Source: Minisyncoccota bacterium (GTDB taxonomy: Bacteria > Patescibacteriota > Minisyncoccia > Phycocordibacterales > UBA918). Taken from it: DNA of 64,000 bases. How positions within the stretch are numbered: position 1 is the stretch's first letter; the number at the start of each line of letters is the position of its first letter. Made by a program: the position numbers and the translations under genes. The stretch is from contig JAIPIB010000001.1 of NCBI GenBank assembly GCA_021734905.1, forward strand, positions 2,230-66,229. The letters are read 5' to 3'. Positions 18 through 57,267 of this stretch are shown piece after piece. The notes beneath the pieces are model-generated. The model was not told the DNA's origin. It ran no database searches and saw only the letters and a list, made by a program, of their open reading frames with translations.

Positions 18-1115
18 ATGTTGGCAGATGGCAAGTTGCGTTCGTCGCTCGGTATCGCACTACAAGAACATAGTAAGGAGGAAGCGATGGCTATTTTTTT
101 AAAACTCAATCGTATTGATGAGGTTCTTCCCAACACACGAAATCTTAGTATGCGCGAGAGAGCCCTCCTCATGTTTGCAAATAGCTTTGACCATAATATT
201 GCAACAGACGATGCTTTTGCCGATTCAGCAGCAGTACACCTAGCCTCTGAAAGTGTGATGGACGGTATGTATGGGTCAGAGCGCGGAAATGAAATATTCG
301 TTGCCTATCCATCAGCTTATGTTGCATCGCAATTAAGATACGGGGGTAAGGGAACTTTAGCTGACAGAGGTATGAGTCAACACAACGATAAGTGGGTATA
401 TACAAAGGATCACGAAGGGATGTCATTGGACGTTGGTTTAGTATTTATTCCCGAGGATGCTCAAGTGGACCCAAAGACTGGATCTCGATATAAAATAGAT
501 GAACGAGGTGAGCCAATTGTTCCAAAACAACGGATGGATGAAGTTCTAAAGGCACGATTTGAAAATTTAGGCTTCGTACAGACCTTCATACAGCAGTTAC
601 CACACCGGATGAATCAAGCACCAGAGCAAGAACGAGAAGCGTTAGCCGAAGCATCATTTGCTGAATTTGGAATTTCTGACCCTGATACAAAGAAGGCTCT
701 CCTAGACCCCCGCCTCATTGATAAGCTCGCAGACATCTGGGGGAAGGACGATGAAAATGAAGAATATGAAAGGATTTTGAATGAGTATTTCCATCATAAT
801 GCCGAGAGTCCGTATGAATTGGCCGGAGGAACCATGTCTTCAAAGGAATATTGGGAAAAACATTTTCAAGAAAATCCAACAGAACGACCATCAAAAGTTG
901 TGTATTACAAAGGAGGCGACCCATCACGTGCACTCAATGAATGGAGAGAGAAGAATGGTATTGTGAAAAAGACGGAAGACCCTACGTATGGGTTTACAGA
1001 ACACAATGTGGCAGACAGTTCAGATGAAGCAAATGTTGGTAAAGATCGTTTTGCATCACTTGCACGAAAGGTGATTGATGACAGATTTCCAGATAGGGAA
1101 GTTGCGCGCACTTAG
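18..1115 (+). CDS. hypothetical protein (365 aa), possibly N-terminally truncated by window edge
   Basis: Long ORF, no recognisable motif in translation; local GC visibly higher than flanks; starts 17 nt from window edge so true start may lie upstream. Confidence 0.4.
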   Translation: MLADGKLRSSLGIALQEHSKEEAMAIFLKLNRIDEVLPNTRNLSMRERALLMFANSFDHNIATDDAFADSAAVHLASESVMDGMYGSERGNEIFVAYPSAYVASQLRYGGKGTLADRGMSQHNDKWVYTKDHEGMSLDVGLVFIPEDAQVDPKTGSRYKIDERGEPIVPKQRMDEVLKARFENLGFVQTFIQQLPHRMNQAPEQEREALAEASFAEFGISDPDTKKALLDPRLIDKLADIWGKDDENEEYERILNEYFHHNAESPYELAGGTMSSKEYWEKHFQENPTERPSKVVYYKGGDPSRALNEWREKNGIVKKTEDPTYGFTEHNVADSSDEANVGKDRFASLARKVIDDRFPDREVART

Positions 1116-1328
1116 AAGTATAGTTAGGGTGTAAAGCAGAGGTACAGACAATGGCTCTTTTCGGATAATGATTCTAGCGTCTCTATATGCTTCGTACTTA
1201 ATAAATTAAATCTGGTACACTTATCAGTATTATGGATACTATTGATATTGTTGGAGGGGCAATTATCATATTCGCGGTAGGGGCGGGTCTTGGTTATTAT
1301 GTTTCTAAGATTTATTTCGGAATATAAA

Positions 1329-2102
1329 TTAATTCTGTGAATAGGGAGGTTCCTCAACATGTTCGTCAACAGCGTGGATATATATACTCAGAAGGGCGAT
1401 CAGAAGTGTGGCAAAAAATGTCGCAGCGAATGTTTTGAAAAAATGATCACGATGCGAATGTTTTAATTCTGGAATGAGGTCTGCAGTGGCAATATAAAGA
1501 AGGTTTCCAGCAGCGACTCCCGTCAGGACAAATACCCACTCACCGAGTGATGACATAAAAAGATATGTAATGAGAACACCAACAATGACAGTTGTTGCAG
1601 ATAGAAAATTATAAAAAGCCGCTTTTTTTCGTGAGTATCCTGATTGGAGTAAAATTCCATATTCTATAATTTCTTGCGGAACTTCATGGAGAGCTATACC
1701 AAGTGTTGTGAGTACTCCAACGGTTGGGCTGAGCATAAAAGCTGAAGCAATAACTATTCCATCAGACATATTGTGGACCGCGTCACCAATGAGAATCATG
1801 CGACCACTATTGTGGGTGCATGCGTCATGATCATCGACATGGTGATGATGAAAGGTATCAAGAAAATGAGAGAGGAGATAAAATCCTAAAAATCCGGCCA
1901 TGATTGTGACCGGGCCCCAGGTTCGTGAAGCATCCATTGTCTCTGGAATAAGTTCAAAAAATACAATGCCAAGAAAAATACCTACAGCAATGGGTAGGAT
2001 AAAACGATGTAATAGGGTTAGTCTAGGATTTTTACCAAAGAAAAATACCCCCGTAAGTGAGAGTAGGGAAATACCAAATGCTCCGATAAGTGCATTAAAC
2101 AT
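1329..2102 (-). CDS. zupT: ZIP-family zinc transporter (ZupT-like)
   Basis: Multi-TM protein with His-rich loop (HHHHVDDHDACTH) and ZIP signature segments GDAVHNMSDGIVIASAF and HEVPQEIIEYGILL. Confidence 0.8.
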   Translation of the reverse strand: MFNALIGAFGISLLSLTGVFFFGKNPRLTLLHRFILPIAVGIFLGIVFFELIPETMDASRTWGPVTIMAGFLGFYLLSHFLDTFHHHHVDDHDACTHNSGRMILIGDAVHNMSDGIVIASAFMLSPTVGVLTTLGIALHEVPQEIIEYGILLQSGYSRKKAAFYNFLSATTVIVGVLITYLFMSSLGEWVFVLTGVAAGNLLYIATADLIPELKHSHRDHFFKTFAATFFATLLIALLSIYIHAVDEHVEEPPYSQN

Positions 2103-2223
2103 GTATTCCTCAAGTGTATACCCGTATGTACGTTTTTTCTAGTTTTTATATAAAACATAATGTATGGTTTCTCTAGGGTGTAGAATTGTAATAAGTTATA
2201 AATATAATGATGATGTTTCACAT

Positions 2224-2604
2224 ATGGAATCTTTTTTAAAAGAATTTAAGGCGTTTGCGATACGAGGGAATGTAGTCGACCTCGCTGTTGCGGTAGTGAT
2301 AGGTGGTGCATTTGGAAAAATTGTTTCGTCCCTCGTTGATACAGTTATAATGCCTACTATGGGGGTTATGCTCGGAGGAATTAATTTTACAGGGTGGGTA
2401 CTTAAAATTGGAGAATCAACTATTGCGTATGGGAAATTTATTCAAGCGATCGTTGATTTTATCATTATCGCTTTTGTAGTTTTTGTTGTAATACGAGCGC
2501 TTTCCCGATTCGAAAAAAAGAAAGAGGTTGAAAAGAAGGCTTCGCCAGCTCCTTCAGAGGAAGTTGTTCTCCTTCGTGAAATTCGAGATAGTTTGAGGAA
2601 ATAG
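2224..2604 (+). CDS. mscL: large-conductance mechanosensitive channel MscL
   Basis: MESFLKEFKAFAIRGNVVDLAVAVVIGGAFGKIVSSLVD matches canonical MscL N-terminus; ORF track starts at 2164 but conserved start is the Met at 2224. Confidence 0.85.
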   Translation: MESFLKEFKAFAIRGNVVDLAVAVVIGGAFGKIVSSLVDTVIMPTMGVMLGGINFTGWVLKIGESTIAYGKFIQAIVDFIIIAFVVFVVIRALSRFEKKKEVEKKASPAPSEEVVLLREIRDSLRK

Positions 2605-2828
2605 TTTGAGATACATAGATTATGTTCATATTTGGAGTATAGACATATTGTCTATACTCCAAAACAGAGAATAGATATACACAAGACTTGCGTACTTCTA
2701 CAAGATGTTGCTATCCACAGACTTTTTCAGCACCGTTTCTTTAAAAGCTATATTTTCCAACCTTATCTCGATCGCGCTTAATTTTAGATATTTTCGCAAT
2801 CGCCCATGAGTGGTATTATTGGTAAGAC

Positions 2829-2902
2829 ACACGCGTAAGCTCTTCGTGTGCGGACGCTTTTGCACATTTTACCTATTTAAATAGCCACGCCAATACGTGG
2901 CT
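2829..2902 (+). promoter_or_regulatory. two short hairpins in nrdA 5' region (cacacg..cgtgtg 2829-2851; gccacg..cgtggc 2885-2902), possible regulatory sites
   Basis: Inverted repeats seen directly in sequence 60-130 nt upstream of nrdA start; function unassigned. Confidence 0.25.
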
Positions 2903-2964
2903 CATTAACCACTTTTTTTCACGGCAAAAAGAGGTATCTTATTAACTAAACTGAGAAACTGCCT

Positions 2965-5880
2965 ATGATCACCACAATTATTAAAAGGAATGGAATGTCA
3001 GTTCCTTTTGACCCAACAAAGATTGTTATCGTTATGAAAAAGGCATTTGCTGCAGAGCAGGTACCTGTTGATGATGACGCTCTTGAACAAATGACGGGTC
3101 GTGTGGTGGTGAGTCTTGGAACGCTGTGTGATGGAAAAGAGAACTGTCCAACAGTTGAACAAGTTCAAGACCTTGTCGAGAACACACTCATGGAGCGAGG
3201 ATATTTTTCTGTTGCAAAGGCATACATTTTGTATCGCTTCCAGCAAAGCGAGGAGCGAAAACAGGAGGTGGTCAAAGAAATCGAAGAACAACGCCTTACT
3301 ATTGAAAGAACAGATGGGAGTATTGAACAATTTTCACGAGAGAAGATGCGTGAGTATCTTCAGGAGTTTACTGAGGGATATGCGGGTGATATTGATTTTG
3401 ATGATTTTGTTTCACAGATAGAGCGTGAAGTGTACGACGGAATCAAAACAAGTGAAATGGCGAAACTTGTTACACTCGTACTTCGGTCGCGAATTGAAAA
3501 TGATCCTGCATATTCAATTGTTGCTGCACGACAACTCTGTAGGCGTATCTCAGATGAAGTCGTTGGAAACTTAAGCGCAATACCCAAAGCAGAGCGGGTA
3601 GCAGCGTATCGTAATGCATTTGTACGAAACATAAAACGTGGCGCTGAAGCAAAGAAGTATGACTCCGTACTTCTTTCATATGATCTCGAAAAGCTTTCTG
3701 CCAGTATCGAACCAGGGCGAGATGATCTTTTTAAATATATTGGTATTGAAACACTCAATGATAGGTATTTTGTTCGTATCGATGGAAAAAAACTTATCGA
3801 AACCCCACAGATGATGTGGATGCGTATTGCGATGGGACTCGCCCTTAACGAGAAAAATAAAGAAGAACGTGCTGTTGAGTTTTACAATATTATGTCTCTT
3901 ATGCACTTTATTCCGTCAACCCCGACATTGTTTCATGCCGGAACGCCGCATCCACAGCTATCATCATGTTATTTAAATGTTGTTGAAGATGACCTTACAC
4001 ATATTTTCAAAGTGTATGGCGACAATGCAATGCTTTCAAAGTGGGCTGGTGGTATTGGGACAGCATGGAGCAAACTTCGAGGCACAGGAGCACTCATTAA
4101 AGCTGCGGGGATTACTTCGCAAGGTGTGATTCCGTTTCTTAAGATCGCCAATGACGTAACGGTCGCAATTAATCGTTCGGGTAGACGCCGAGGTGCAACT
4201 GCAGTGTATATGGAAAACTGGCATATTGATTTTGAAGATTTTCTTGAGCTGCGGAAAAATACTGGTGATGAACGGAGACGTACTCATGATATGAATACTG
4301 CAGCATGGATATCCGACCTTTTCATGAAGCGAGTTCGGGAAGATGGTCAGTGGACACTCTTTTCACCCGATGAGGCAGCAGACCTTACAGAGACATACGG
4401 AAAGCAATTTGATGAATTGTACGAAAAATATGAAGGAATGGCTGATGTGGGTGAAATCAAACTCTTTAAGAGAGTCAAAGCAAGGGATCTTTGGCGACGA
4501 ATGCTCGGCATGTTGTTCGAGACAGGACATCCTTGGATTACCTTCAAAGACCCATCAAATATTCGATCACCACAAGACCATGCAGGAGTGATTCATAGTT
4601 CAAATCTCTGTACAGAGATCACCCTCAATACCTCAGCGGAAGAAACTGCTGTATGTAATCTTGGGTCAGTTAACTTTCCACGACACATCATAAACGGAGT
4701 TTTTGATGAACAGATGGTGAAGCAAACAGTTACGACCGCAATGCGTATGCTTGACAATGTCATTGACCTTAACTTTTATCCAACGGTCGAGGCGCGAAAT
4801 TCGAACATGAAGCATCGACCTGTTGGACTTGGCATCATGGGCTTTCAAGATGCATTGTATATGCAAAATATCCCGTTTGGCTCAGACGCCTGTGTTGAAT
4901 TTTCTGATGCATCTATGGAAATTATTTCATATTATGCAATATTGGCGTCAACAGAATTGGCTCGAGAGCGGGGTATGTATCAAAGCTATAAAGGCTCGAA
5001 GTGGGATCGCGGAATTTTTCCAGTCGATACAATCGCACTCCTTGAAGATGAACGGGGGATTTCCACAGGAACTGACTGTACTGAGCGCCTCGACTGGGGA
5101 GTTGTGAGAGATGCTGTAAAACAGTACGGTATGCGCAACAGTAATACTATGGCAATTGCACCAACGGCTACTATTGCAAACATTGCAGGATCAATTCCTG
5201 GGAATGAGCCAATCTATAAAAATATTTATGTAAAGTCGAATATTTCAGGTGACTTCGTAATTGTAAATTCGTATCTCGTAGAAGATCTCAAGAAGGACGG
5301 ATTATGGGATGATGAAATGCTTCAAGCAATTAAATATAATGATGGAAGCCTTGCAGATATTCCAAGTGTGCCTGTTGAACTTAAGGTTAAATACAAAGAA
5401 ACGTTTGAAATCGATATGAGGTGGCTTGTTAAGGCTGGAGCAAGTCGAGGAAAATGGATTGATCAGTCACAGTCACTCAACATATTTTTCAATGGAACGT
5501 CAGGAAAAGAGCTTTCTGAGTTGTATATGTATGCATGGGAGGCTGGACTCAAGACAACATATTATCTCAGATCCCTTGCTGCGACACAGGTTGAAAAATC
5601 AACAGTTGGCAATGAAGGAACACACCTCCGAAAGGATTCTGATGCTGGAAGAACCCCAGACGCAGCATTTAATACGGCAGTTATTCCTGGCACAGCTTTT
5701 GTTCGAAAGGAAACATCTTCAGTGCCTGTTGCACAGACTACTGATCCTATTCCTTCACCAATGCCAACTCCGTCACCGTTTACCAAGGGTATTCGAGAAA
5801 AAGAGAAGGTTGAATTAAAGAATAAATCTGCGGTGAAACTCCATATTGCAGAGGACGCTATTTGCGAGTCTTGTCAATAA
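2965..5880 (+). CDS. nrdA: ribonucleoside-diphosphate reductase class I alpha subunit
   Basis: N-terminal ATP-cone (IIKRNG..), catalytic core motifs (LSSCYLNVVEDDL, NLCTEITLNTS..AVCNLGSVNF), C-terminal redox Cys pair (..ICESCQ); followed by nrdB. Confidence 0.9.
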   Translation: MITTIIKRNGMSVPFDPTKIVIVMKKAFAAEQVPVDDDALEQMTGRVVVSLGTLCDGKENCPTVEQVQDLVENTLMERGYFSVAKAYILYRFQQSEERKQEVVKEIEEQRLTIERTDGSIEQFSREKMREYLQEFTEGYAGDIDFDDFVSQIEREVYDGIKTSEMAKLVTLVLRSRIENDPAYSIVAARQLCRRISDEVVGNLSAIPKAERVAAYRNAFVRNIKRGAEAKKYDSVLLSYDLEKLSASIEPGRDDLFKYIGIETLNDRYFVRIDGKKLIETPQMMWMRIAMGLALNEKNKEERAVEFYNIMSLMHFIPSTPTLFHAGTPHPQLSSCYLNVVEDDLTHIFKVYGDNAMLSKWAGGIGTAWSKLRGTGALIKAAGITSQGVIPFLKIANDVTVAINRSGRRRGATAVYMENWHIDFEDFLELRKNTGDERRRTHDMNTAAWISDLFMKRVREDGQWTLFSPDEAADLTETYGKQFDELYEKYEGMADVGEIKLFKRVKARDLWRRMLGMLFETGHPWITFKDPSNIRSPQDHAGVIHSSNLCTEITLNTSAEETAVCNLGSVNFPRHIINGVFDEQMVKQTVTTAMRMLDNVIDLNFYPTVEARNSNMKHRPVGLGIMGFQDALYMQNIPFGSDACVEFSDASMEIISYYAILASTELARERGMYQSYKGSKWDRGIFPVDTIALLEDERGISTGTDCTERLDWGVVRDAVKQYGMRNSNTMAIAPTATIANIAGSIPGNEPIYKNIYVKSNISGDFVIVNSYLVEDLKKDGLWDDEMLQAIKYNDGSLADIPSVPVELKVKYKETFEIDMRWLVKAGASRGKWIDQSQSLNIFFNGTSGKELSELYMYAWEAGLKTTYYLRSLAATQVEKSTVGNEGTHLRKDSDAGRTPDAAFNTAVIPGTAFVRKETSSVPVAQTTDPIPSPMPTPSPFTKGIREKEKVELKNKSAVKLHIAEDAICESCQ

Positions 5881-20481: not shown

Positions 20482-23400
20482 ATGCTTATTATTATGTCTG
20501 ATATACATAACCATATGGATACAAATAAAGAGGATGAGAAGAGTGATGTTGCGCGTCGTGAAGAGGATGTTCTGGCGTTTTGGAACGAGCGCGATATTTT
20601 TAATAAAAGTCTAGAAAAGGAATCACCGAATGGTGATTTTGTGTTTTATGACGGTCCACCGTTTGCGACGGGGACTCCCCACTACGGGCATATTCTTGCG
20701 GGGACAATCAAAGATGCTATTCCAAGGTTTTGGACAATGAATGGATACCGCGTGAAGCGGAAGTGGGGTTGGGACTGCCATGGTCTTCCCCTTGAAAATA
20801 TTATTGAGAAGAGGCTTGGACTTGCAACAAAGAGGGATATTGAAGAACTTGGCGTAAAGAAATTTAACGAGGCTGCACGGGATGCAGTGCTTGAGTATGA
20901 GGATGACTGGAAAGTGGTCGTGCCACGAATGGGACGGTGGGCAGACATGGAACATGACTACAAGACAATGGATTCAACATATACCGAATCAGTATGGTGG
21001 GTTTTTTCTGAACTTAACCGTAAGGGGCTTGTGTATGGAGGATTTAAGTCAATGCACCTCTGTCCACGTTGTGGTACTACACTCTCAAACTTTGAGGTGA
21101 ATCAGGGATACAAAGATATCAAGGATATTGCTGTAACGGTAGAACTTCCACTTCTTGATGAGGAAGGAAAAATCACTGACACATCTCTTCTTGTGTGGAC
21201 GACGACTCCGTGGACACTTCCAGGGAACATGGCTGCAGCAGTGCACAATGATATTGAGTACGTAGTAGTTGAAAAAAAAGATGAAGGTGAGGGAGAATTA
21301 GTGCGCTTCATTGTTGCAAAAGGCAGACTCGAAGCAATTTTCGGAGGTCAGGAATACACCATCGTCGAGGAGATAAAAGGAAGTGAGCTTGTGGGAAAAT
21401 CATATCAACCTCCTTTCGACTATTTTCAGAAACAAGAATTTCAACATAAAGAAAAGGCATGGAAAATTTACCACGCAGACTATGTTGAGCTTGGTGAGGA
21501 TGGAACAGGCGCGGTACATATTGCTCCTGCGTATGGAGAAGAGGATATGGAGCTCGCAAAAAAAGAAGGATTTCCTATCATGCACCATGTTGATGAGTTG
21601 GGACACTTCAAAGATTTTGTAACTGATTTTAAGGGGCAGTTGGTTAAGCCAAAGGATGATGACGATGCTGGAGTAACTCACCTTGAGGCCGATATAGAGA
21701 TTGTTAAGGCCTTGAAAGTATCCGGAAAATTGTTTCAAAAGGAAAATATTACGCACTCGTATCCACACTGTTGGCGATGTGACACTCCGCTTATTAACTA
21801 CGCAACAACATCATGGTTTGTTCGTGTAACTGATCTCAGAGATCGTCTTGTCGAAGAGAACAGTAAGGTATGCTGGGTTCCTGAACACGTCGGGAGAGCA
21901 CGATTTGGAAAATGGCTTGAGGGTGCTCGTGACTGGGCAATATCACGACAACGCTATTGGGGAGCACCACTGCCAATTTGGAAGAATCAAAAAACTGGTG
22001 AAGCAAAAATTATTGGTTCACTCAGTGACCTCCAGCAGTATGTTCGAAAAACTGGGAATTCGTATTTCCTCACACGTCATGGAGAATCAGAATTTAATAC
22101 GAAGTGGATTTTGAACGGGACCACTGGTGTTGAAAACGGACTTACTGAAAAAGGGAAAGAACAAGTTGACACTGCTTCAGCAATTCTTAAAGATGAAAAG
22201 ATAGACCTTATCTACCACTCTCCACTTGAAAGAACAACCGAGACAGCGCTAAAAATTGCACAAACACTCGGACTTGGAGAGGACTCACTTATTGCAGATG
22301 ATCGTTTGAAAGAGATGCAATTTGGTGAATTTGAGGGAAAAGAAGTCAATGATTATCTAGCCTTCTTTGGGAGTGGCTACAATCGACTTATTATGCATCC
22401 TGAGGGCGGTGAGTCATGGAGTGATGTGAAACGACGCGTTGGAGCATTTCTTTATGAAATAGATTCAAAACACACGGGGAAGCGTATTCTCATTGTTTCT
22501 CACAATGGTACGCTTCAAATGCTTCAGGCAGTTGCACAAGGCCTTGAACATGAGAGACTAGGCCATCTCGTTGGAGAAGATAGACTCGATATACAGAACG
22601 CAGAAGTTCGAGCGTTTTCATTTGTTCCAATGCCACATAACGACGATTACGTTCTCGATTTTCACCGGCCATACATTGATGAGATTGGACTCGTTGATAC
22701 AGATGGAGAAATTATGAAACGCATCCCCGACGTCTTTGATTGTTGGTTTGAGTCTGGCTCTATGCCGTATGCACAAAACCACTACCCATTTGAAAATAAA
22801 GATGTTTTTAACGCAGAGCAAGGGCGAGGGTTTCCGGCACAATTTATCGCGGAAGGCCTCGACCAAACCCGAGGATGGTTTTACTCACTTATTGTTTTAG
22901 GAGTGTCACTCTTCGGTAAGTCGCCCTACGAAAACGTTATTGTGAATGGCCTTGTTCTTGCCGAAGACGGAAAGAAGATGAGTAAACGTTTACAGAATTA
23001 CCCAGATCCGATGGAACTTGCTGATCGGGTTGGCGCCGATGCGATGCGGTACTACCTTCTTTCTTCGTCGATTGTTCGTGGGGAAGATCTTAATTTCTCA
23101 GAAAAAGAAGCACTTGAATTGCAGAGAAAAAATATTGGACGCCTTCACAACGTACTCGCGATGTATCAAATGTATGCGGACGAAGGTATCGCGCCAAGTA
23201 ACAGCTCAGAGAACCCACTTGACCGGTGGATACTTTCTCGAACAAATGAAATGCTTCGTGACGTTACAGTAGGATATAAGAATTACGAGCTCGACAAAGC
23301 AACACGTCCAATCGCAGACTGCATTGAGGATCTCTCAGTCTGGTATTTGCGCCGTTCTCGTGAGCGCTTGAAGGGGGGTGATAGCAATGATAAAAAACAC

Positions 23401-24048
23401 GCACTGGGGACACTTCGCTATGTGTTACAGAGCTTGTCTCTAGTGATGGCGCCGGTTATGCCTTTCTACGCAGAACACCTTTTTCAACGTGTTCGTGAAG
23501 CTAATGATGCAGAAAGTGTCCACTTAATGAATTGGCCTAGCGTAGGAGCTGTAGATGCAGACATTCTTTCAGGGATGAGTGAAGTGAGGCGTATTGTTAC
23601 AGAGGCTCTTGAACTGAGAACAAAGGCAAATATGAAAGTTCGTCAGCCACTCGCAAAACTCACCTTTGGTTCTGATGTTCCAAGCATGAAAGATGATTTA
23701 TTTTTCTTGTTAGTGGATGAGGTAAATGTGAAAGTTGTGGAAAAAATAAACGATAAAGAAAAAACAGCAGTATGGCTCGACACGACTATTACCGAAGAGC
23801 TTAAGCGTGAAGGTGACGTCCGAGAGCTTATGCGAAGTATTCAGGATTCCAGAAAGGTGAAAGGACTGAGTCCACAAGACAGGATAGTGCTCCGTGTTTC
23901 AGAAGGGACAAAACAACTTATTTCTGGATTCGAAATAGAAATAATGTCTGTCGTTGGAGCTGTAGATATACGCACTGATTCGAATGTGTCTGGCGGGGAA
24001 GTCATCATTGATTCTGTTATCTATAACTTTGCAATAGAAATGCAATAA
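20482..24048 (+). CDS. ileS: isoleucine--tRNA ligase, type 2 (eukaryote-like), with inserted histidine-phosphatase (PGM-type) domain
   Basis: FYDGPPFATGTPHYGHIL (type-2 IleS HIGH), GWDCHGLPLE, DVFDCWFESGSMPYAQ, KMSKRLQNYPDP; internal ~190 aa FLTRHGESEFN...ILIVSHNGTL matches phosphoglycerate-mutase-type histidine phosphatase. Confidence 0.9.
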   Translation: MLIIMSDIHNHMDTNKEDEKSDVARREEDVLAFWNERDIFNKSLEKESPNGDFVFYDGPPFATGTPHYGHILAGTIKDAIPRFWTMNGYRVKRKWGWDCHGLPLENIIEKRLGLATKRDIEELGVKKFNEAARDAVLEYEDDWKVVVPRMGRWADMEHDYKTMDSTYTESVWWVFSELNRKGLVYGGFKSMHLCPRCGTTLSNFEVNQGYKDIKDIAVTVELPLLDEEGKITDTSLLVWTTTPWTLPGNMAAAVHNDIEYVVVEKKDEGEGELVRFIVAKGRLEAIFGGQEYTIVEEIKGSELVGKSYQPPFDYFQKQEFQHKEKAWKIYHADYVELGEDGTGAVHIAPAYGEEDMELAKKEGFPIMHHVDELGHFKDFVTDFKGQLVKPKDDDDAGVTHLEADIEIVKALKVSGKLFQKENITHSYPHCWRCDTPLINYATTSWFVRVTDLRDRLVEENSKVCWVPEHVGRARFGKWLEGARDWAISRQRYWGAPLPIWKNQKTGEAKIIGSLSDLQQYVRKTGNSYFLTRHGESEFNTKWILNGTTGVENGLTEKGKEQVDTASAILKDEKIDLIYHSPLERTTETALKIAQTLGLGEDSLIADDRLKEMQFGEFEGKEVNDYLAFFGSGYNRLIMHPEGGESWSDVKRRVGAFLYEIDSKHTGKRILIVSHNGTLQMLQAVAQGLEHERLGHLVGEDRLDIQNAEVRAFSFVPMPHNDDYVLDFHRPYIDEIGLVDTDGEIMKRIPDVFDCWFESGSMPYAQNHYPFENKDVFNAEQGRGFPAQFIAEGLDQTRGWFYSLIVLGVSLFGKSPYENVIVNGLVLAEDGKKMSKRLQNYPDPMELADRVGADAMRYYLLSSSIVRGEDLNFSEKEALELQRKNIGRLHNVLAMYQMYADEGIAPSNSSENPLDRWILSRTNEMLRDVTVGYKNYELDKATRPIADCIEDLSVWYLRRSRERLKGGDSNDKKHALGTLRYVLQSLSLVMAPVMPFYAEHLFQRVREANDAESVHLMNWPSVGAVDADILSGMSEVRRIVTEALELRTKANMKVRQPLAKLTFGSDVPSMKDDLFFLLVDEVNVKVVEKINDKEKTAVWLDTTITEELKREGDVRELMRSIQDSRKVKGLSPQDRIVLRVSEGTKQLISGFEIEIMSVVGAVDIRTDSNVSGGEVIIDSVIYNFAIEMQ

Positions 24049-50863: not shown

Positions 50864-51559
50864 ATGACAACTGAATGGATACAGGTCCTTCAATATTCGT
50901 TTCAAACACTCTGGGTGGAAGTCGTTTCTTTTTTACCACAGTTTCTCATCGCATTTCTCATCCTCATTGTTGGATGGATCATCGGTGGCGTGTTGAAGCG
51001 AATCGTTGAAAAAGTATTTGCTACGCTCAAGGTAGACCAACTTCTCGATATGGCAGGGGTTGATGAGTTGAGTGAAAAAGCTGGATATAAACTTAGAGCA
51101 GGAGCATTCGTTGGGTCACTCGTGAAGTGGTTTACCATCATCGTATTTTTTGTTGCATCACTAGATGTACTTAATCTGGATCAGGTAACAGTTTTCTTTA
51201 GGGAAGTTGTTCTCTCATACCTCCCACAAGTAATTGTCGCAGTACTCATACTTTTTGGAGCAATGATTATTGCGAAAGTTGTGGACACAAGTATTGTTGC
51301 AACATCTCGCGCAGCAGGCTTTAGTTCTCCAGACCTTCTTGGTCATTTTGCTCGATATGCGATCCTTGTGCTTGCTGTACTTGCAGCACTTAGTCACCTT
51401 CAGATTGCACCGCAGCTTGTTGAGATGCTTTTTGCAGGCTTTGTCTTTGCAACATCACTCGCGCTCGGACTTGCTTTTGGTCTTGGTGGTAAGGAAACTG
51501 CTGCACATTGGCTTAATGCCTTTACACAGAAGAAGAACGATCATATGAACCATCGGTAG
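50864..51559 (+). CDS. membrane protein with repeated conserved-TM-helix motif (MscS-associated TM_helix-like)
   Basis: Repeated ~25-aa hydrophobic units with charged caps. Confidence 0.4.
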   Translation: MTTEWIQVLQYSFQTLWVEVVSFLPQFLIAFLILIVGWIIGGVLKRIVEKVFATLKVDQLLDMAGVDELSEKAGYKLRAGAFVGSLVKWFTIIVFFVASLDVLNLDQVTVFFREVVLSYLPQVIVAVLILFGAMIIAKVVDTSIVATSRAAGFSSPDLLGHFARYAILVLAVLAALSHLQIAPQLVEMLFAGFVFATSLALGLAFGLGGKETAAHWLNAFTQKKNDHMNHR

Positions 51560-52465: not shown

Positions 52466-53025
52466 ATTCCTTACAGGAATGTTAAGGGTGTATGGTGGAT
52501 GCCTAGGCTTCAAGAAGCGATGAAGGACGTGATATGGCTGCGATAAGCGTGGGGGAGATGCCAAATAATCGTTATATCCCACGATTTCCGAATGAGGAAA
52601 CTCACCTGCTTACGGCAGGTACCCTTGAATGAGGGAGCGTACCCAGGGAAGTGAAACATCACAGTACCTGGAGGAAAAGAAAGCAAAAAACGGGACTTTC
52701 TTTCTGACTTTTGAACAGCTTGCTGTTCTCCATTGAAGTCAGGAAGAAGGTTCTCGCGATTCCCTTAGTAGCGGCGAGCGAAAAGGGTAGAGCCCAAACC
52801 ATTCGTATTTATATGGATGGGGTTGTAGGGCAGTAGTGTCATTTAGTTGAGAAGAGTTACAAAATGTTGTCATAATAAAACGCGTTGGGAAGCGCGACCC
52901 AAGAAGGTAATAGTCCTGTATATGAAATTTCAACAACTCTTTTGCTACTGTTCCTGAGTAGTTCGGGACATGAATAGCCCGAATGAATCTGGGAGGACTA
53001 ACTCCTAAGGCTAAATATTCTTGAA

Positions 53026-53071
<46 letters not shown>

Positions 53072-53639
53072 GGAGAGGGGAGTGAAATAGATCTGAAACC
53101 ATACATCTACAAGGAGTCGAAGCCCTGCGGGGCGACGGCGTGCCTATTGAAGAATGAGCCGGCGAGTGTATCTTTATTCTTTGTCTAAGTGGTAAACCCA
53201 CGGAGGCGTAGTGAAAGCGAGCGTGAATAGCGCGAATATAGAGTAAGGATACGACCCGAAGCGGGATGAGCTTGCCATGTGCAGGGTGAAGCGAAGGTAA
53301 AACTTCGTGGAGGCCCGAACCGGTTGGCCGTTCAAAACCATCGGATGACATGTGGTAGGGAGTGAAAAGCTAATCGAATTCCGTAATAGCTGGTTCTCTC
53401 CGAAACAGCTTTAGGGTTGGCGTCGTGTGTTCCTCCTGGGGGTAGAGCTCTGGAAGGTCTAAATAGGGAGAAATCTCGTTAGACCTATCAAACTACGAAT
53501 ACCAGGTAGTCACAGCACGGCAGTTAGACTACGGGGGAGAAGCTCCGTTGGTCGAAAGGGAAACAGCCCAGATCGCCAGTTAAGGTCCCAAAATATATGC
53601 TCAGTGCAACTTGAGGAGGTGAGGATTCATAAACAGTCA

Positions 53640-53671
<32 letters not shown>

Positions 53672-54514
53672 GAAAGCGTAACAGCTCACTGATCGAGAGT
53701 CCTTGCGCCGAAGATGATCGGGGCTCAAGCATATTACCGAAACTGCGGATGTCACTTTTCTTCGGAAAAGTGGCGTGGTAGGAGAGCGTTCTGTTCTGCA
53801 ATGAAGCCAAGGTGTAAACCACGGTGGAGCGTACAGAAGTGAGAATGCCGGCACAAGTAACCGCAAGACGGGTGAGAACCCCGTCCGCCGAAATACCGAG
53901 GTTTCCTTCGCTATGCTGATCAGCGAAGGGTTAGTCGGTCCTAAGCCGATCCCGAATGGGGGAGGCGATGGATAGCAGGTTAATATTCCTGCACACTGTT
54001 GCGTTGCGATGGAGGGACGGAGGGTTGTACCCAAAGCATCTTATTGGATTGGTGCTGGAACTATGAGGAGGTGTGGTAGGCAAATCCGCCACACAATACT
54101 CCGAGTAGGGTCTGAACGTAAGGCTTCGGCCGAGCGAATGAGGGGAGCACGCTTCCTAGAAAAACTTCTAAGCATAAACGTAACGGTTCCGTACCGCAAA
54201 CCGACACAGGTGGTAGGGTCGAGAAGACCAAGGCGAACGAGTGAGGGGTCCTTAAGGAACTCGGCAAAAAAGCGGCCGTAACTTCGGGATAAGGCCTGCC
54301 TTTGCCCCTTCGGGGGTTAAAGGCCGCAGCGAAAGATTTCCTGGCAACTGTTTAACAAAAACACAGCTCCCTGCGAACACGTAAGTGGATGTATAGGGGG
54401 TGACGCCTGACCAATGCCGGAAGGTTAAATATGGGGGGTCTTATGTATTTATATGTAAGGCTGGACTATATAAGCCCCGGTCAATGTCAGCGATAACTAT
54501 AATCGTTCTAAGGT

Positions 54515-54712
54515 TCAGCAATTTTTCTTCGGAAAAATTGCTGATAGGACTGGAACGATTATGGGTTAAACATATAACGCCGAACAAGCTACCTTGCATC
54601 CAGAAATGTATGCATAGTCCAAATTGCAACCAACAAGAGACCAAATGTTGCACATCTTAACTATCGAAAGATAAAAGATGAAGATAGAGTCCTTCTGCAA
54701 TAGGAATAGAAG
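54515..54712 (+). other. 198-nt intervening sequence in 23S domain IV between AAGGU and AGCG (E. coli ~L1917-1923 region); degenerate group-I-like mini-intron?
   Basis: Exon sequence contiguous in E. coli; insert preceded by U, ends in G; contains gatgaagatagagtcc nearly identical to S-element segment of the downstream intron; starts with perfect UUCG-type hairpin cagcaattttt-cttcgg-aaaaattgctg. Confidence 0.55.
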
Positions 54713-55279
54713 AGCGCAATTCCTTGTCGGGTAAGTTCCGACGTGCACGAAAGGCGTAATGACTGGGAAACTGTCTCAAGGACCTGCTCGGTGAAAATAC
54801 AATGGGGGTGAAGATGCCCCCTACCTGCAGTTAGACGAAAAGACCCCAGGAGCTTTACTGTAGCTTCGTATTGGGGCTGTTGAATTAATGCGTAGCATAG
54901 AAGGGAGACTTTGAAGCGAGCTTTCGGGTTTCGTGGAGTCGCCAGTGAAATACCTTTCTTTAATTTGGCAGTTCCTAACCTCTTAGAAAAAATCTAAGAG
55001 AGACAGTGCGTGGCAGGCAGTTTTAGTGGGGCGCTACCCTCCTAAAAAGTAACGGAGGGGTCTCAAGGTTGGCTAGGCGCGAATGGAAACCGTGCCGATA
55101 GTGTAATGGCATAAGCCAGCTTGACTGTAAGGCGTCAGTGCCGAACAGATGCGAAAGCAGAGCATAGTGAACCGACGGTACGCTTTAGACGCGGCCGGAG
55201 ATTATCTGACAAAAGTTACCCTGGGGATAACAGGCTAGTCGTGCCCAAGCGTCCATAGCGACGGCACGGTTCGGCACCT

Positions 55280-55646
55280 TAACTTATTTATGGTATTTCA
55301 CTCAGCAATGGGTGTTTATATCAAGTTATAAATACATCGGGGTGCCTAGAGTAGCAATACTCTATAAAAATAAATTGGCTATATGCTGGAACTCCTGAGT
55401 CAAAATTAAGCATACAAGGCCCAAACAGTAATTTGAAAAAATAAGCTGTGTGGCTTGAAAACATTGTATGTTCAGGACAATCAGCAGGGAAGACTTCTAA
55501 GTTATTTAAAATAATATGAAGAACCCTCAGAGACTACACGCCAATCTCCAACTCTAAGTAGAGCTGGATGAAGATATAGTCCGATCCTCGTAGTAATACG
55601 AGTGTATAGTAAAAGTAGATAGAATTTTTACTATACAAAACGACAG
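55280..55646 (+). other. group I self-splicing intron (367 nt, no ORF) in 23S domain V at E. coli L2500-equivalent site
   Basis: Interrupts GGCACCU|CGAUGUCGGCUC; 5' exon ends in U, intron ends in G; candidate IGS gggtgt (55310-55315) pairs with exon gcaccu giving U-G at splice site; conserved Q aatcagcagg (55479-55488), R cctcagagactacacg (55525-55540), S aagatatagtcc (55571-55582). Confidence 0.85.
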
Positions 55647-55676
55647 CGATGTCGGCTCAACTTATCCTGGGGCTGG

Positions 55677-55712
<36 letters not shown>

Positions 55713-55717
55713 AAGTT

Positions 55718-55755
<38 letters not shown>

Positions 55756-56160
55756 CTCTATCTACTGCAGGCGTCGATTCTTGAAGAGATTTGTCCCTAG
55801 TACGAGAGGACCGGGATGAACTGACCTCTGGTCTATCTGCTGTCACGCCAGTGGCACCGCAGAGTAGCTATGTTGGGAATGGATAACTGCTGAAAGCATC
55901 TAAGCAGGAAGCCAACTCTAAGATTAGGAATCATTAAGTCCCCTGAGAGATGATCAGGTTGATAGGCACTAGGTGTAAGCGCAGCAATGTGTGGAGCCGA
56001 GGTGTACTAATTAGACGTAATTCCTGTAGGGAATGCTGTACATCGCCCCAAATGAACAAAATTAACGCACTGTTTTTAATTTTGGACATTTAGGAGTGAA
56101 AAGCTATACAATTTTTTGGAGTATTGTTTTATGTTTGTCGTCGTTTTAGAATATGTGATT

Positions 56161-56261: not shown

Positions 56262-56730
56262 ATTGACAATTGAATACTGTAATGTGGTTTTTAAACCATA
56301 AAGATCAGAGACGAATCAAAATTTCCGCTATCGGTCGCCAACCTCCCAAGTTTCAGGCATATCCGATACGTGTGTGTTTACATTTTGATTGACTTGCTCA
56401 GGTAGGCATTCCATGGCGGCTTTTGCCTCCTAACCTGCCGCCCGCGATTCTTCGCTACCTTGCGCAGTCATGCAAGTTGGGAGCTTTCTCCCCGTCTCTC
56501 CCTCGTTCTTTGTCTGTCGGTGGTGTATAGAAATTGTACGATTTTTCTGCCTTTCTTCATTCTTTTGGGATGTAGCTCAGCTAGAGGGTTATTGCAACTT
56601 CTTAGGTAGAGTGCCAATTGTTCCCGGTTGTCAACATCCGGTAAAAAGATTGGAGGTCGCTGGTTCGAATCCAGCCATCCCGACCATTGCTATTTCTTTG
56701 GAAATAGCATCACATTACAGTATTCAATAG
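56262..56730 (+). other. inverted repeat attgaatactgtaatgtg (56270-56287) / cacattacagtattcaat (56711-56728) bracketing the tRNA: candidate processing stem
   Basis: 18-bp perfect complementarity seen in sequence. Confidence 0.5.
56566..56686 (+). tRNA. aberrant over-long tRNA gene (121 nt) with canonical acceptor/T-arm/encoded CCA but ~22-nt insert in D-loop and ~23-nt insert in anticodon loop; isotype unresolved
   Basis: 5' tgggatg-ta-gctc-ag.. and 3' ..gaggtc-gctgg-ttcgaat-ccagc-catcccg-a-cca; anticodon stem ccaat/attgg encloses 30 nt instead of 7. Confidence 0.5.

Positions 56731-57147: not shown

Positions 57148-57267
<120 letters not shown>

Follow-up and report, generated by a model that had tools for sequence, protein, structure and literature searches.

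Within a 64,000-nucleotide (nt) stretch of the genome of a Minisyncoccota bacterium (GCA_021734905.1, contig JAIPIB010000001.1, positions 2,230 to 66,229 of the forward strand; hereafter "the window"), the 23S ribosomal RNA (rRNA) gene is interrupted by a 198-nt insertion that belongs to a conserved and widespread family of shrunken group I introns in 23S genes of the candidate phyla radiation (CPR). These introns, here called mini-introns, lack the P4-P6 domain. Based on comparative sequence evidence, we estimate at roughly 70% the probability that the insertion derives from a group I intron through loss of P4-P6 and continues to be removed by group I splicing chemistry, and the family as a whole is probably still spliced out. 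Rfam 15 contains no family for the mini-intron, the published survey of CPR rRNA insertions (PMC11270868), whose supplement provides summary counts, does not describe it, and full-text literature searches returned no description of the family. The mini-introns thus constitute a previously uncharacterised family, which is a variant within group I and not a new class.

Position and group I signature of the insertion

The insertion is located in a bacterial-type 23S gene (52472..56030; 2320 bits with Rfam) and is bounded by ...CUAAGGU (ending at 54514) and AGCGCAAUUCCUUGUCGGGUAAG (starting at 54713), so that its boundaries are unambiguous. Its extent, the U that precedes it (54514) and its terminal G (54712), all proposed in an initial annotation of this DNA, were confirmed on the sequence and satisfy the group I U...G rule. 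The same annotation had assigned it to a cluster of group I insertion sites around Escherichia coli positions 1917-1923, which was correct as to the type of site and wrong as to the position: in the E. coli rrl gene, CCUAAGGU ends at U1931, and the insertion point follows that base (CCUAAGGU1931/A1932). We therefore designate the site L1931, a classic group I insertion site between helix 69 (H69) and helices 70 and 71 (H70/71). On folding, the insert is more stable than shuffled sequences (z = -3.9).

Comparison with the Rfam group I model (Intron_gpI, RF00028), as suggested in the initial annotation, gave a divided answer: the local match spans the full model, includes the R and S elements and ends on the terminal G, but scores 20.2 bits (E=0.0036), under the gathering threshold of 50 bits. 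No other Rfam family matches the insert. The only group I intron of the window that reaches the gathering score lies within 55280..55646 (92.8 bits); it is inserted after canonical U2500 (site L2500) and starts 568 nt downstream of the insert. Its S box, GATGAAGATATAGTCC (55567..55582), is identical at 15 of 16 positions to that of the insert, GATGAAGATAGAGTCC (54677..54692), as had been noted initially, and the pattern has no further occurrence in the window, with none expected by chance.

Both Q and R had been considered missing from the insert. The P/Q pair, i.e. P4-P6, is indeed absent, but an R-like element, AAGAGACCAA, is present. Rfam places it at J6/7-P7, against AAAGACUAAA of RF00028; full-length relatives at or above the gathering score carry the same element unchanged, and its counterpart in the downstream intron is UCAGAGACUACA. 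P3 encloses merely 16 nt (54631..54646), 8 of which are the R element, and P4-P6 has no room because P3 closes directly around J6/7 and the 5' strand of P7. Of the P3-P7 pseudoknot with P8, the helices P3 and P8 are supported by covariation, and R and S, which form the guanosine-binding helix P7, by the Rfam alignment.

A widespread family found at one site

Homologues were collected through two scans. The first covered one genome per species, with the S box followed by the 3' exon as query, and yielded 120 L1931 introns from many phyla, most of them ~625 nt long and containing open reading frames (ORFs). Six of the introns recovered (191-285 nt), all from Paceibacteria, Nomurabacteria or Lloydbacteria genomes, were clear homologues of the insert. 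The second scan covered metagenome contigs, with R...S alone as query and exons not required, and identified at least 81 loci where the element sits between both L1931 exons. Among the matches listed, 11 loci were at contig ends or had just one recognised exon, 28 were unrelated, and the mini form was found at L1931 only, even though the query was independent of the exons. Matches away from L1931 were discarded as chance matches in coding DNA or as ordinary group I introns, e.g. from mitochondrial cox1.

The pooled set comprises at least 76 unique sequences. At least 72 distinct ones are mini-introns of 187-415 nt (median ~211), each located at L1931 in a 23S gene of CPR/Paceibacteria type; no P/Q motif was found in any of these 72, whose mean column identity is ~49%. 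All 76 unique sequences are preceded by ...AAGGU, hence by U, and end with G. A covariance model (R1) built from 56 family sequences scored the family at 105-219 bits, compared to at most 56 bits for every other L1931 intron, and in the window matched only the insert (199 bits). The insert, initially envisaged as possibly a degenerate derivative, is therefore not an isolated copy but one of at least 72 distinct sequences that show strong covariation.

Conserved secondary structure

Covariation was evaluated on a model-based alignment of the 72 distinct sequences, with which a MAFFT-only alignment agrees except for hairpin H1, misaligned by MAFFT. Overall, 94.7% of cells are paired, as opposed to 76.4% in shuffles (0/500 of which reach the observed value) and at most 41% when partners are slid. 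Two-sided changes were observed for all 13 pairs of H1 (89.9% of cells paired), 6/6 pairs of P3 (98.6%), 5/6 pairs of the P8 outer stem (87.5%), 4/5 pairs of the P9.0-like stem (95.8%), and 5/5 stem plus 2/2 loop-closing pairs of the HX hairpin (90-92%). For the P2-like helix H2 (95.4% paired), 3/6 pairs display such changes, including a GC to UA replacement (6 sequences) and a CG to UA replacement (12 sequences). H1 is the C(UUCG)G-type opening hairpin already recognised in the initial annotation; with H1 regions folded singly, it is opened by intron nt 1 or 2 in 74/74 unique sequences. The coordinates of all elements are given in Table 1.

The 5' strand of H2 has a second potential partner: its GGACU (i33-37, 54547..54551) can also pair with AGUCC of the S element (54688..54692), a pairing compatible with 97.5% of the family and used instead of H2 in the single-sequence minimum-energy fold. 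It was set aside as the main fold, as S is invariant whereas H2 shows the double changes described above, and was kept as a possible alternative conformer; the two pairing options of GGACU could be a conformational switch. Two other assignments were rejected. P1 cannot be an extension of H1, because H1 is followed by U or A and then by GG, a sequence unable to pair with ...GGU, and H2 cannot be P3 or P4, because the 3' strand of P3 must come after the 5' strand of P7 and only UGCAAC/GUUGCA fits this order.

Table 1. Elements of the mini-intron and of its exons in the window (i, position within the insert; window coordinate = 54514 + i)
Element	Window coordinates	Strand	Description
5' exon, -16 to -7, AUAAUCGUUC	54499..54508	+	E. 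coli 1916-1925, 3' half of H69; partner of segment A
Last five 5' exon bases, AAGGU	54510..54514	+	5' strand of P1; 5' splice site after 54514
Mini-intron insert	54515..54712	+	198 nt
H1 hairpin	54515..54544 (i1-30)	+	Perfect 13-bp stem, C(UUCG)G; flush with the 5' splice site
H2, 5' strand, GGACUG	54547..54552 (i33-38)	+	P2-like closing helix; pairs with 54615..54620
Segment A, GAACGAUUAU	54553..54562 (i39-48)	+	Exon-binding; pairs with 54499..54508
Variable region	54563..54587	+	Small hairpin i49-67 and conserved UAAACA; site of family length differences (alignment, fold)
Internal guide sequence, GCUACCU	54588..54594 (i74-80)	+	
HX hairpin	54595..54614 (i81-100)	+	GNRA loop GAAA; GUAA in most relatives
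H2, 3' strand, UAGUCC	54615..54620 (i101-106)	+	
P3, 5' strand, UGCAAC	54625..54630 (i111-116)	+	Pairs with 54647..54652
R-like element, AAGAGACCAA	54635..54644	+	J6/7 and P7 5' strand GACC (54639..54642), in the 16-nt P3 loop
P3, 3' strand, GUUGCA	54647..54652 (i133-138)	+	
P8 hairpin	54653..54680 (i139-166)	+	Outer 6-bp stem, inner 4-bp stem, GAAA loop
S element, AAGAUAGAGUCC	54681..54692 (i167-178)	+	P7 3' strand G(A)GUC at 54687..54691
P9.0-like hairpin, CUUCU/AGAAG	54692..54712 (i178-198)	+	Loop with L9; omega G = 54712
L9, AGGAAU	54702..54707 (i188-193)	+	Pairs with 3' exon +7 to +12
3' exon	54713..54724	+	+1 to +3 AGC, P10 partner; +7 to +12 AUUCCU, pairs with L9
Predicted ligated-exon junction			CUAAGGU joined to AGCGCAAUUCC

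Pairings between intron and exons

Three kinds of intron-exon pairing, formed by segment A, L9 and the guide, all lie outside the alignment model. Segment A and its 5' exon target are 96.8% paired across the 72 distinct sequences, with two-sided changes at four pairs (including CG36/UA29/UG6, CG35/GU27 and CG42/UA29). The exon segment itself differs between lineages (AUAAUCGUUC vs AUAACGGUCC), and segment A tracks the change. On the other side of the intron, L9 and the 3' exon are 97.9% paired, also with two-sided changes (AU59/UA7; UA50/AU16), and the partners co-vary, AGGUAU being found with AUACCU and GGGUAC with GUACCU.

The guide, GCUACCU, complements the ligated junction AGGU/AGC at every base, in the group I order of P10 followed by P1: GCU pairs with AGC of the 3' exon (54713..54715; P10), and ACCU with AGGU of the 5' exon (P1). 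It reads G(C/U)UACCU in 69/76 unique sequences, and such a 7-mer is expected ~0.006 times per 198 nt. P10 is 100% paired, and its C to U changes preserve pairing (CG45/UG27) with invariant exon partners. P1, in which exon AAGGU complements intron ACCUU (i77-81, 54591..54595), is 99% paired with a nearly invariant exon strand, so that covariation is uninformative there.

When these pairings are combined with the intron helices, the segment A-exon helix, P1, HX and H2, with 0-1 nt between them, would meet in an arrangement resembling a four-way junction. At the 3' splice site, an H-type pseudoknot would result from the P9.0 stem and the L9-exon helix.

In four loci (L151, 275..1000, as well as L135, L140 and L143), a second group I intron containing a LAGLIDADG-like ORF is inserted directly after CCUUGUCGGGUA, leaving beside the mini-intron a 20-nt micro-exon that holds the L9 pairing site. 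Sub-threshold group I matches of ~106 nt in L135 and L151 were considered as still smaller introns and rejected after reading L151, where the match is the 3' part of this ordinary ORF-containing intron inserted 20 nt downstream.

Origin from full-length introns

Several full-length introns at L1931 share features with the mini-introns. L170 (301 nt) and L173 (349 nt) have H1, segment A, R and S in common with them, reach 54.4 and 61.7 bits with Rfam, and carry UAUAUGCUGGAAA...AAUCAGCAGGAAA (P4, P5, P6). L232 (625 nt) is colinear with the mini-introns at its 5' end (H1, H2, segment A, GCUACCU, HX) and at its 3' end (R, P3', P8, S, P9.0/L9), and its middle part consists of ~400 extra nt with P (UAUAUGCUGGAAA), P5, Q (CAAUCAGCAGGAAA) and a P6 containing an ORF. 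P and Q motifs are both found in L170, L173 and L232, and Q in L155. As judged from this colinearity, the full-length relatives show the ancestral state, from which P4-P6 and the ORF were cleanly deleted to give the mini form. Comparison with these relatives places the insert among the descendants of bona fide group I introns, in support of the initial proposal that it derives from such an intron and lacks core elements. Since L232 carries both the H2-HX domain and a genuine P4-P6, the idea of H2-HX as a disguised P4-P6 was rejected: it is a P2-type domain and not a P4-P6 replacement.

Two further observations concern the distribution of related introns. L1931 introns of ~625 nt (L002..L121) were detected in genomes labelled Acidobacteriota, Eremiobacterota, Proteobacteria, Nitrospirota, Chloroflexota and other non-CPR phyla, and the site thus appears to have been invaded in bacteria far more widely than the few classic cases suggest. 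In addition, two mitochondrial cox1 group I introns among the metagenome matches (L147 and L202) have the same P7 variant, with R AGAGACCA and S AAGAUAGAGUC, so this variant is not peculiar to the CPR family.

Probable splicing of the mini-introns

In the mechanism that we propose, the ancestral intron would have lost the P4-P6 domain along with the homing-endonuclease ORF located in it, and the role of the lost scaffold would be taken over by the four-way junction together with the GNRA-capped P2-like domain. Exons would be held by four pairings, namely P1, P10, segment A-exon and L9-exon. A guanosine would attack the 5' splice site in the first step, and the 5' exon would attack after the terminal G in the second. 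With the 3' half of H69 engaged by segment A, the intron would have to leave before H69 can form. Taken together, the location of the element at a functionally critical 23S junction, the competition of segment A with H69, and the fact that every helix still pairs although the family has diverged since the deletion to ~49% mean column identity suggest continued splicing.

There are precedents for introns of this kind. A T4 td intron engineered without P4-P6 is active at ~1/1000 of the rate, according to the passage of PMC2879505 that cites Ikawa 2000, and fungal group I remnants of 56-81 nt without most of the core have been reported, including the 67-nt PaSSU, for which in vitro splicing helped by exon sequence was described (PMC3160393). 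These td and fungal cases make a P4-P6-less intron plausible. In CPR, rRNA insertions were reported to be absent from transcripts; 82% of 23S genes contain insertions, position 1931 is a hotspot, and many short 23S insertions were left unclassified by Rfam (PMC11270868).

Several observations weigh against continued group I splicing. P4-P6, a defining group I core domain, is missing, and the Intron_gpI score of 20.2 bits is under the gathering threshold of 50. The engineered P4-P6-less td ribozyme is very slow. At the 5' splice site, the U faces A77 instead of forming the near-universal G.U wobble; the opposite base is also A in L170 and L232, and is G, giving the wobble, in L173 and L155. Exon bases at the junction are universally conserved, which puts P1 and P10 beyond a covariation test, and the P7 pairs, while 100% paired, are invariant, partly since the scans demanded R and S, so that covariation is uninformative for them too. 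The four-way junction is a paper model in which P1 and the segment A-exon helix cross in sequence order, i.e. form a pseudoknot, and the alternative pairing of GGACU with S leaves the active fold unsettled.

Given the incomplete core, the mini-intron might be activated in trans by a canonical group I intron, present in the same transcript or cell, that lends it P4-P6 or the activity of an entire ribozyme; such dependence on a partner was already raised in the initial annotation. Separately transcribed P4-P6 can complement a Tetrahymena core in vitro, the window contains a canonical intron close downstream with a near-identical S box, and canonical introns are also found in some homologue-bearing 23S genes (L131, L164, L098, L151). 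The closest named 23S relative, from a "Candidatus Paceibacteria" metagenome-assembled genome (L112; 91.8% identity), is however informative in this respect. Its 23S gene (3220 nt) differs from that of the window by just two gaps of at least 8 nt, one of 12 nt and the other corresponding to the 367-nt L2500 intron; it has the mini-intron alone, and no Rfam group I match at gathering score was found across the 8 kb of L112. Similarly, the complete mini-intron-bearing 23S genes of L142, L026, L140 and L157 contain no group I match at gathering score. These five cases make dependence on a co-resident intron unlikely. Moreover, the L2500 intron is of a different lineage (its R is AGAGACUA, and P1 and P9 differ), and nothing in the mini-intron covaries with a partner. 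We thus regard trans-activation as very improbable. The L2500 intron, which is ORF-less, corresponds to an exact 367-nt gap in the alignment with L112, a clean presence/absence that fixes its boundaries.

A second alternative, also put forward initially, is that the insert is an intervening sequence (IVS) that host RNases would excise without ligation, so that the 23S rRNA would be interrupted between H69 and H70/71. CPR 23S genes commonly contain short unclassified insertions, some of which are regarded as IVSs of the RNase III type (PMC11270868), and the incomplete core and the splice site lacking a G.U wobble would also speak for an IVS. Known IVSs, however, are located in terminal loops (the 23IS2 and 23IS4 sites; PMC11270868) and have a long end-to-end stem, whereas the insert occupies an inter-helix junction and its ends form separate local hairpins (H1 and P9), with no end-to-end stem in either its single-sequence fold or the family structure. 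Simple excision would also give no role to the junction-spanning guide, the conserved terminal G and the covarying exon pairings. Fragmentation of the 23S rRNA by an unspliced IVS is hence a poor fit to these data and appears improbable.

Retention of the insert in mature 23S rRNA, where it would be an expansion segment or a dead but tolerated relic, would be consistent with the lack of an Rfam intron call at gathering score. Yet H69, through its 3' strand and loop, is the covarying partner of segment A, and in a retained insert this pairing would compete with H69, which forms a universally conserved bridge between ribosomal subunits. A relic, for its part, would not keep 13/13 H1, 6/6 P3 and 5/5 HX pairs covarying at ~49% identity. 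Accordingly, we consider retention highly implausible.

If group I splicing is indeed retained, it may rely on a protein. Many organellar group I introns with weak cores require maturases or CYT-18-type proteins, and the P4-P6 scaffold could be replaced by an obligatory cofactor, for example an RNA chaperone of the host or a LAGLIDADG maturase encoded by a related intron. LAGLIDADG ORFs are abundant at L1931 and nearby sites in CPR (PMC11270868; L151), and the ~1000-fold slower engineered td intron would fit a need for such help. Conversely, there is no intron-encoded ORF in or beside the mini-intron in the window and in L112, and the extensive RNA-RNA pairing suggests an RNA-based solution. 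A strict protein requirement seems somewhat unlikely to us, and it overlaps with splicing by group I chemistry without excluding it. Protein-free self-splicing of the mini-intron is possible though short of probable. The broader proposal, in which a widespread natural class of group I introns would self-splice without P4-P6, with four intron-exon pairings and a partly exon-built four-way junction replacing the scaffold and the host rRNA thereby contributing to the ribozyme structure, is likewise tentative, and we give it rather less than even odds.

Genomic context

The genes flanking the 23S gene in the window are bacterial (~40% G+C), and the same upstream genes were found on a Logan metagenome contig. 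With L112 as closest named 23S relative, the host is a CPR/Patescibacteria-type organism. A 5S gene is located at 57155..57262, and no 16S rRNA gene was found in the 64-kb window; 23S and 5S form a unit without linkage to 16S, and the protein-coding genes upstream of it end at 51559. Between 23S and 5S lies a 118-nt tRNA-like gene (56566..56683, + strand; Rfam tRNA, 37.7 bits) in which ~27 nt replace the D-loop and 29 nt are found in the anticodon loop. Its counterpart in L112 is 173 nt long (4266..4438), and ARAGORN made no calls on the window, this gene included. An exact-protein look-up of the downstream ORF returned no match. A 74-nt tRNA (Rfam, 54.4 bits) was also detected in a Paceibacterota genome (L026, 4096..4169) within the 23S span (882..4590), and may represent a tRNA gene embedded in a 23S insertion. 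Elsewhere in the window, an IleRS-like class I aminoacyl-tRNA synthetase (20482..24048, + strand; 1188 aa) carries, within its catalytic domain, an inserted histidine-phosphatase domain (His_Phos_1, aa 529-696, E=4.6e-37).

Significance

P4-P6 counts as a universal part of the group I core, and is the textbook example of an RNA domain that folds independently. A large family lacking it, with every remaining helix under selection, would allow the "minimal catalytic domain" idea to be tested on natural introns; so far, the main support for this idea comes from an engineered td mutant and a handful of very small fungal introns. The splice sites would also be held differently, with two separate exon-binding sites on each side, an arrangement reminiscent of the pairings between exon-binding and intron-binding sites (EBS/IBS) of group II introns. 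Since mini-intron relatives score 20-34 bits with Intron_gpI, compared to a cut-off of 50, the family would explain part of the short "unclassified" CPR rRNA insertions that Rfam-based surveys leave unnamed. Mini-introns affect the annotation and amplification of CPR 23S genes, and a splicing element of ~190-200 nt with programmable exon pairings could serve RNA circularisation or trans-splicing designs.

Comparison with known systems

The nearest known systems are the canonical introns of CPR and other bacteria at the same site (23IS7 of Tsurumaki et al. 2024, PMC11270868; here L170, L173, L232 and L155), which are clearly homologous to the mini-introns. Both share R AGAGACCA and S AAGAUAGAGUC, an opening hairpin that directly adjoins the 5' splice site, segment A and the position of the guide, and the P9.0/L9 region of L232, L175 and L233 is the same as that of the mini-introns. 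Unlike these, canonical introns have P4, P5 and P6 (P/Q), where mini-introns have 16 nt, often contain an ORF, and reach the gathering score; in L173 and L155, a G.U wobble takes the place of the U-A pair of the mini-introns.

The Azoarcus tRNA-Ile intron is ~205 nt long, and compact bacterial introns of this type resemble the mini-introns in length, in lacking an ORF, and in having GNRA loops on peripheral helices. They differ in their complete core with P4-P6, their G.U wobble, and their guide adjoining the 5' splice site. IVSs of 23S rRNA processed by RNase III are, like the mini-intron, short ORF-less bacterial 23S insertions, but they are found in hairpin loops (helix 9, 25 or 45), possess a terminal processing stem, and leave the rRNA unligated.

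Two systems share the absence of P4-P6. The engineered T4 td intron (Ikawa, Shiraishi and Inoue 2000), as presented where PMC2879505 cites it, has the P3-P7-P8-P9 catalytic domain in common with the mini-introns and demonstrates that a core without P4-P6 is still capable of the chemistry; it is, however, artificial, ~1000 times slower than its parent, devoid of compensating exon pairings, and not shaped by evolution. PaSSU-type introns of fungal nuclear small subunit (SSU) rDNA (Harris and Rogers 2011, PMC3160393) are, like the mini-introns, natural, without P4-P6, and apparently reliant on exons for folding. They keep P1, P7 and P10 plus an extra 3'-exon pairing, and are monophyletic at one site. 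In contrast to the mini-introns, however, they are eukaryotic, measure 56-81 nt, occupy nuclear SSU position 1516 or 516, and lack P3, P8 and P9; their P7 is said to derive from P9.2, and the terminal base of PaSSU is U instead of G (PMC3160393). Comparative support is much thinner for the fungal introns, and the two groups are not homologous, their resemblance being one of principle and not of descent.

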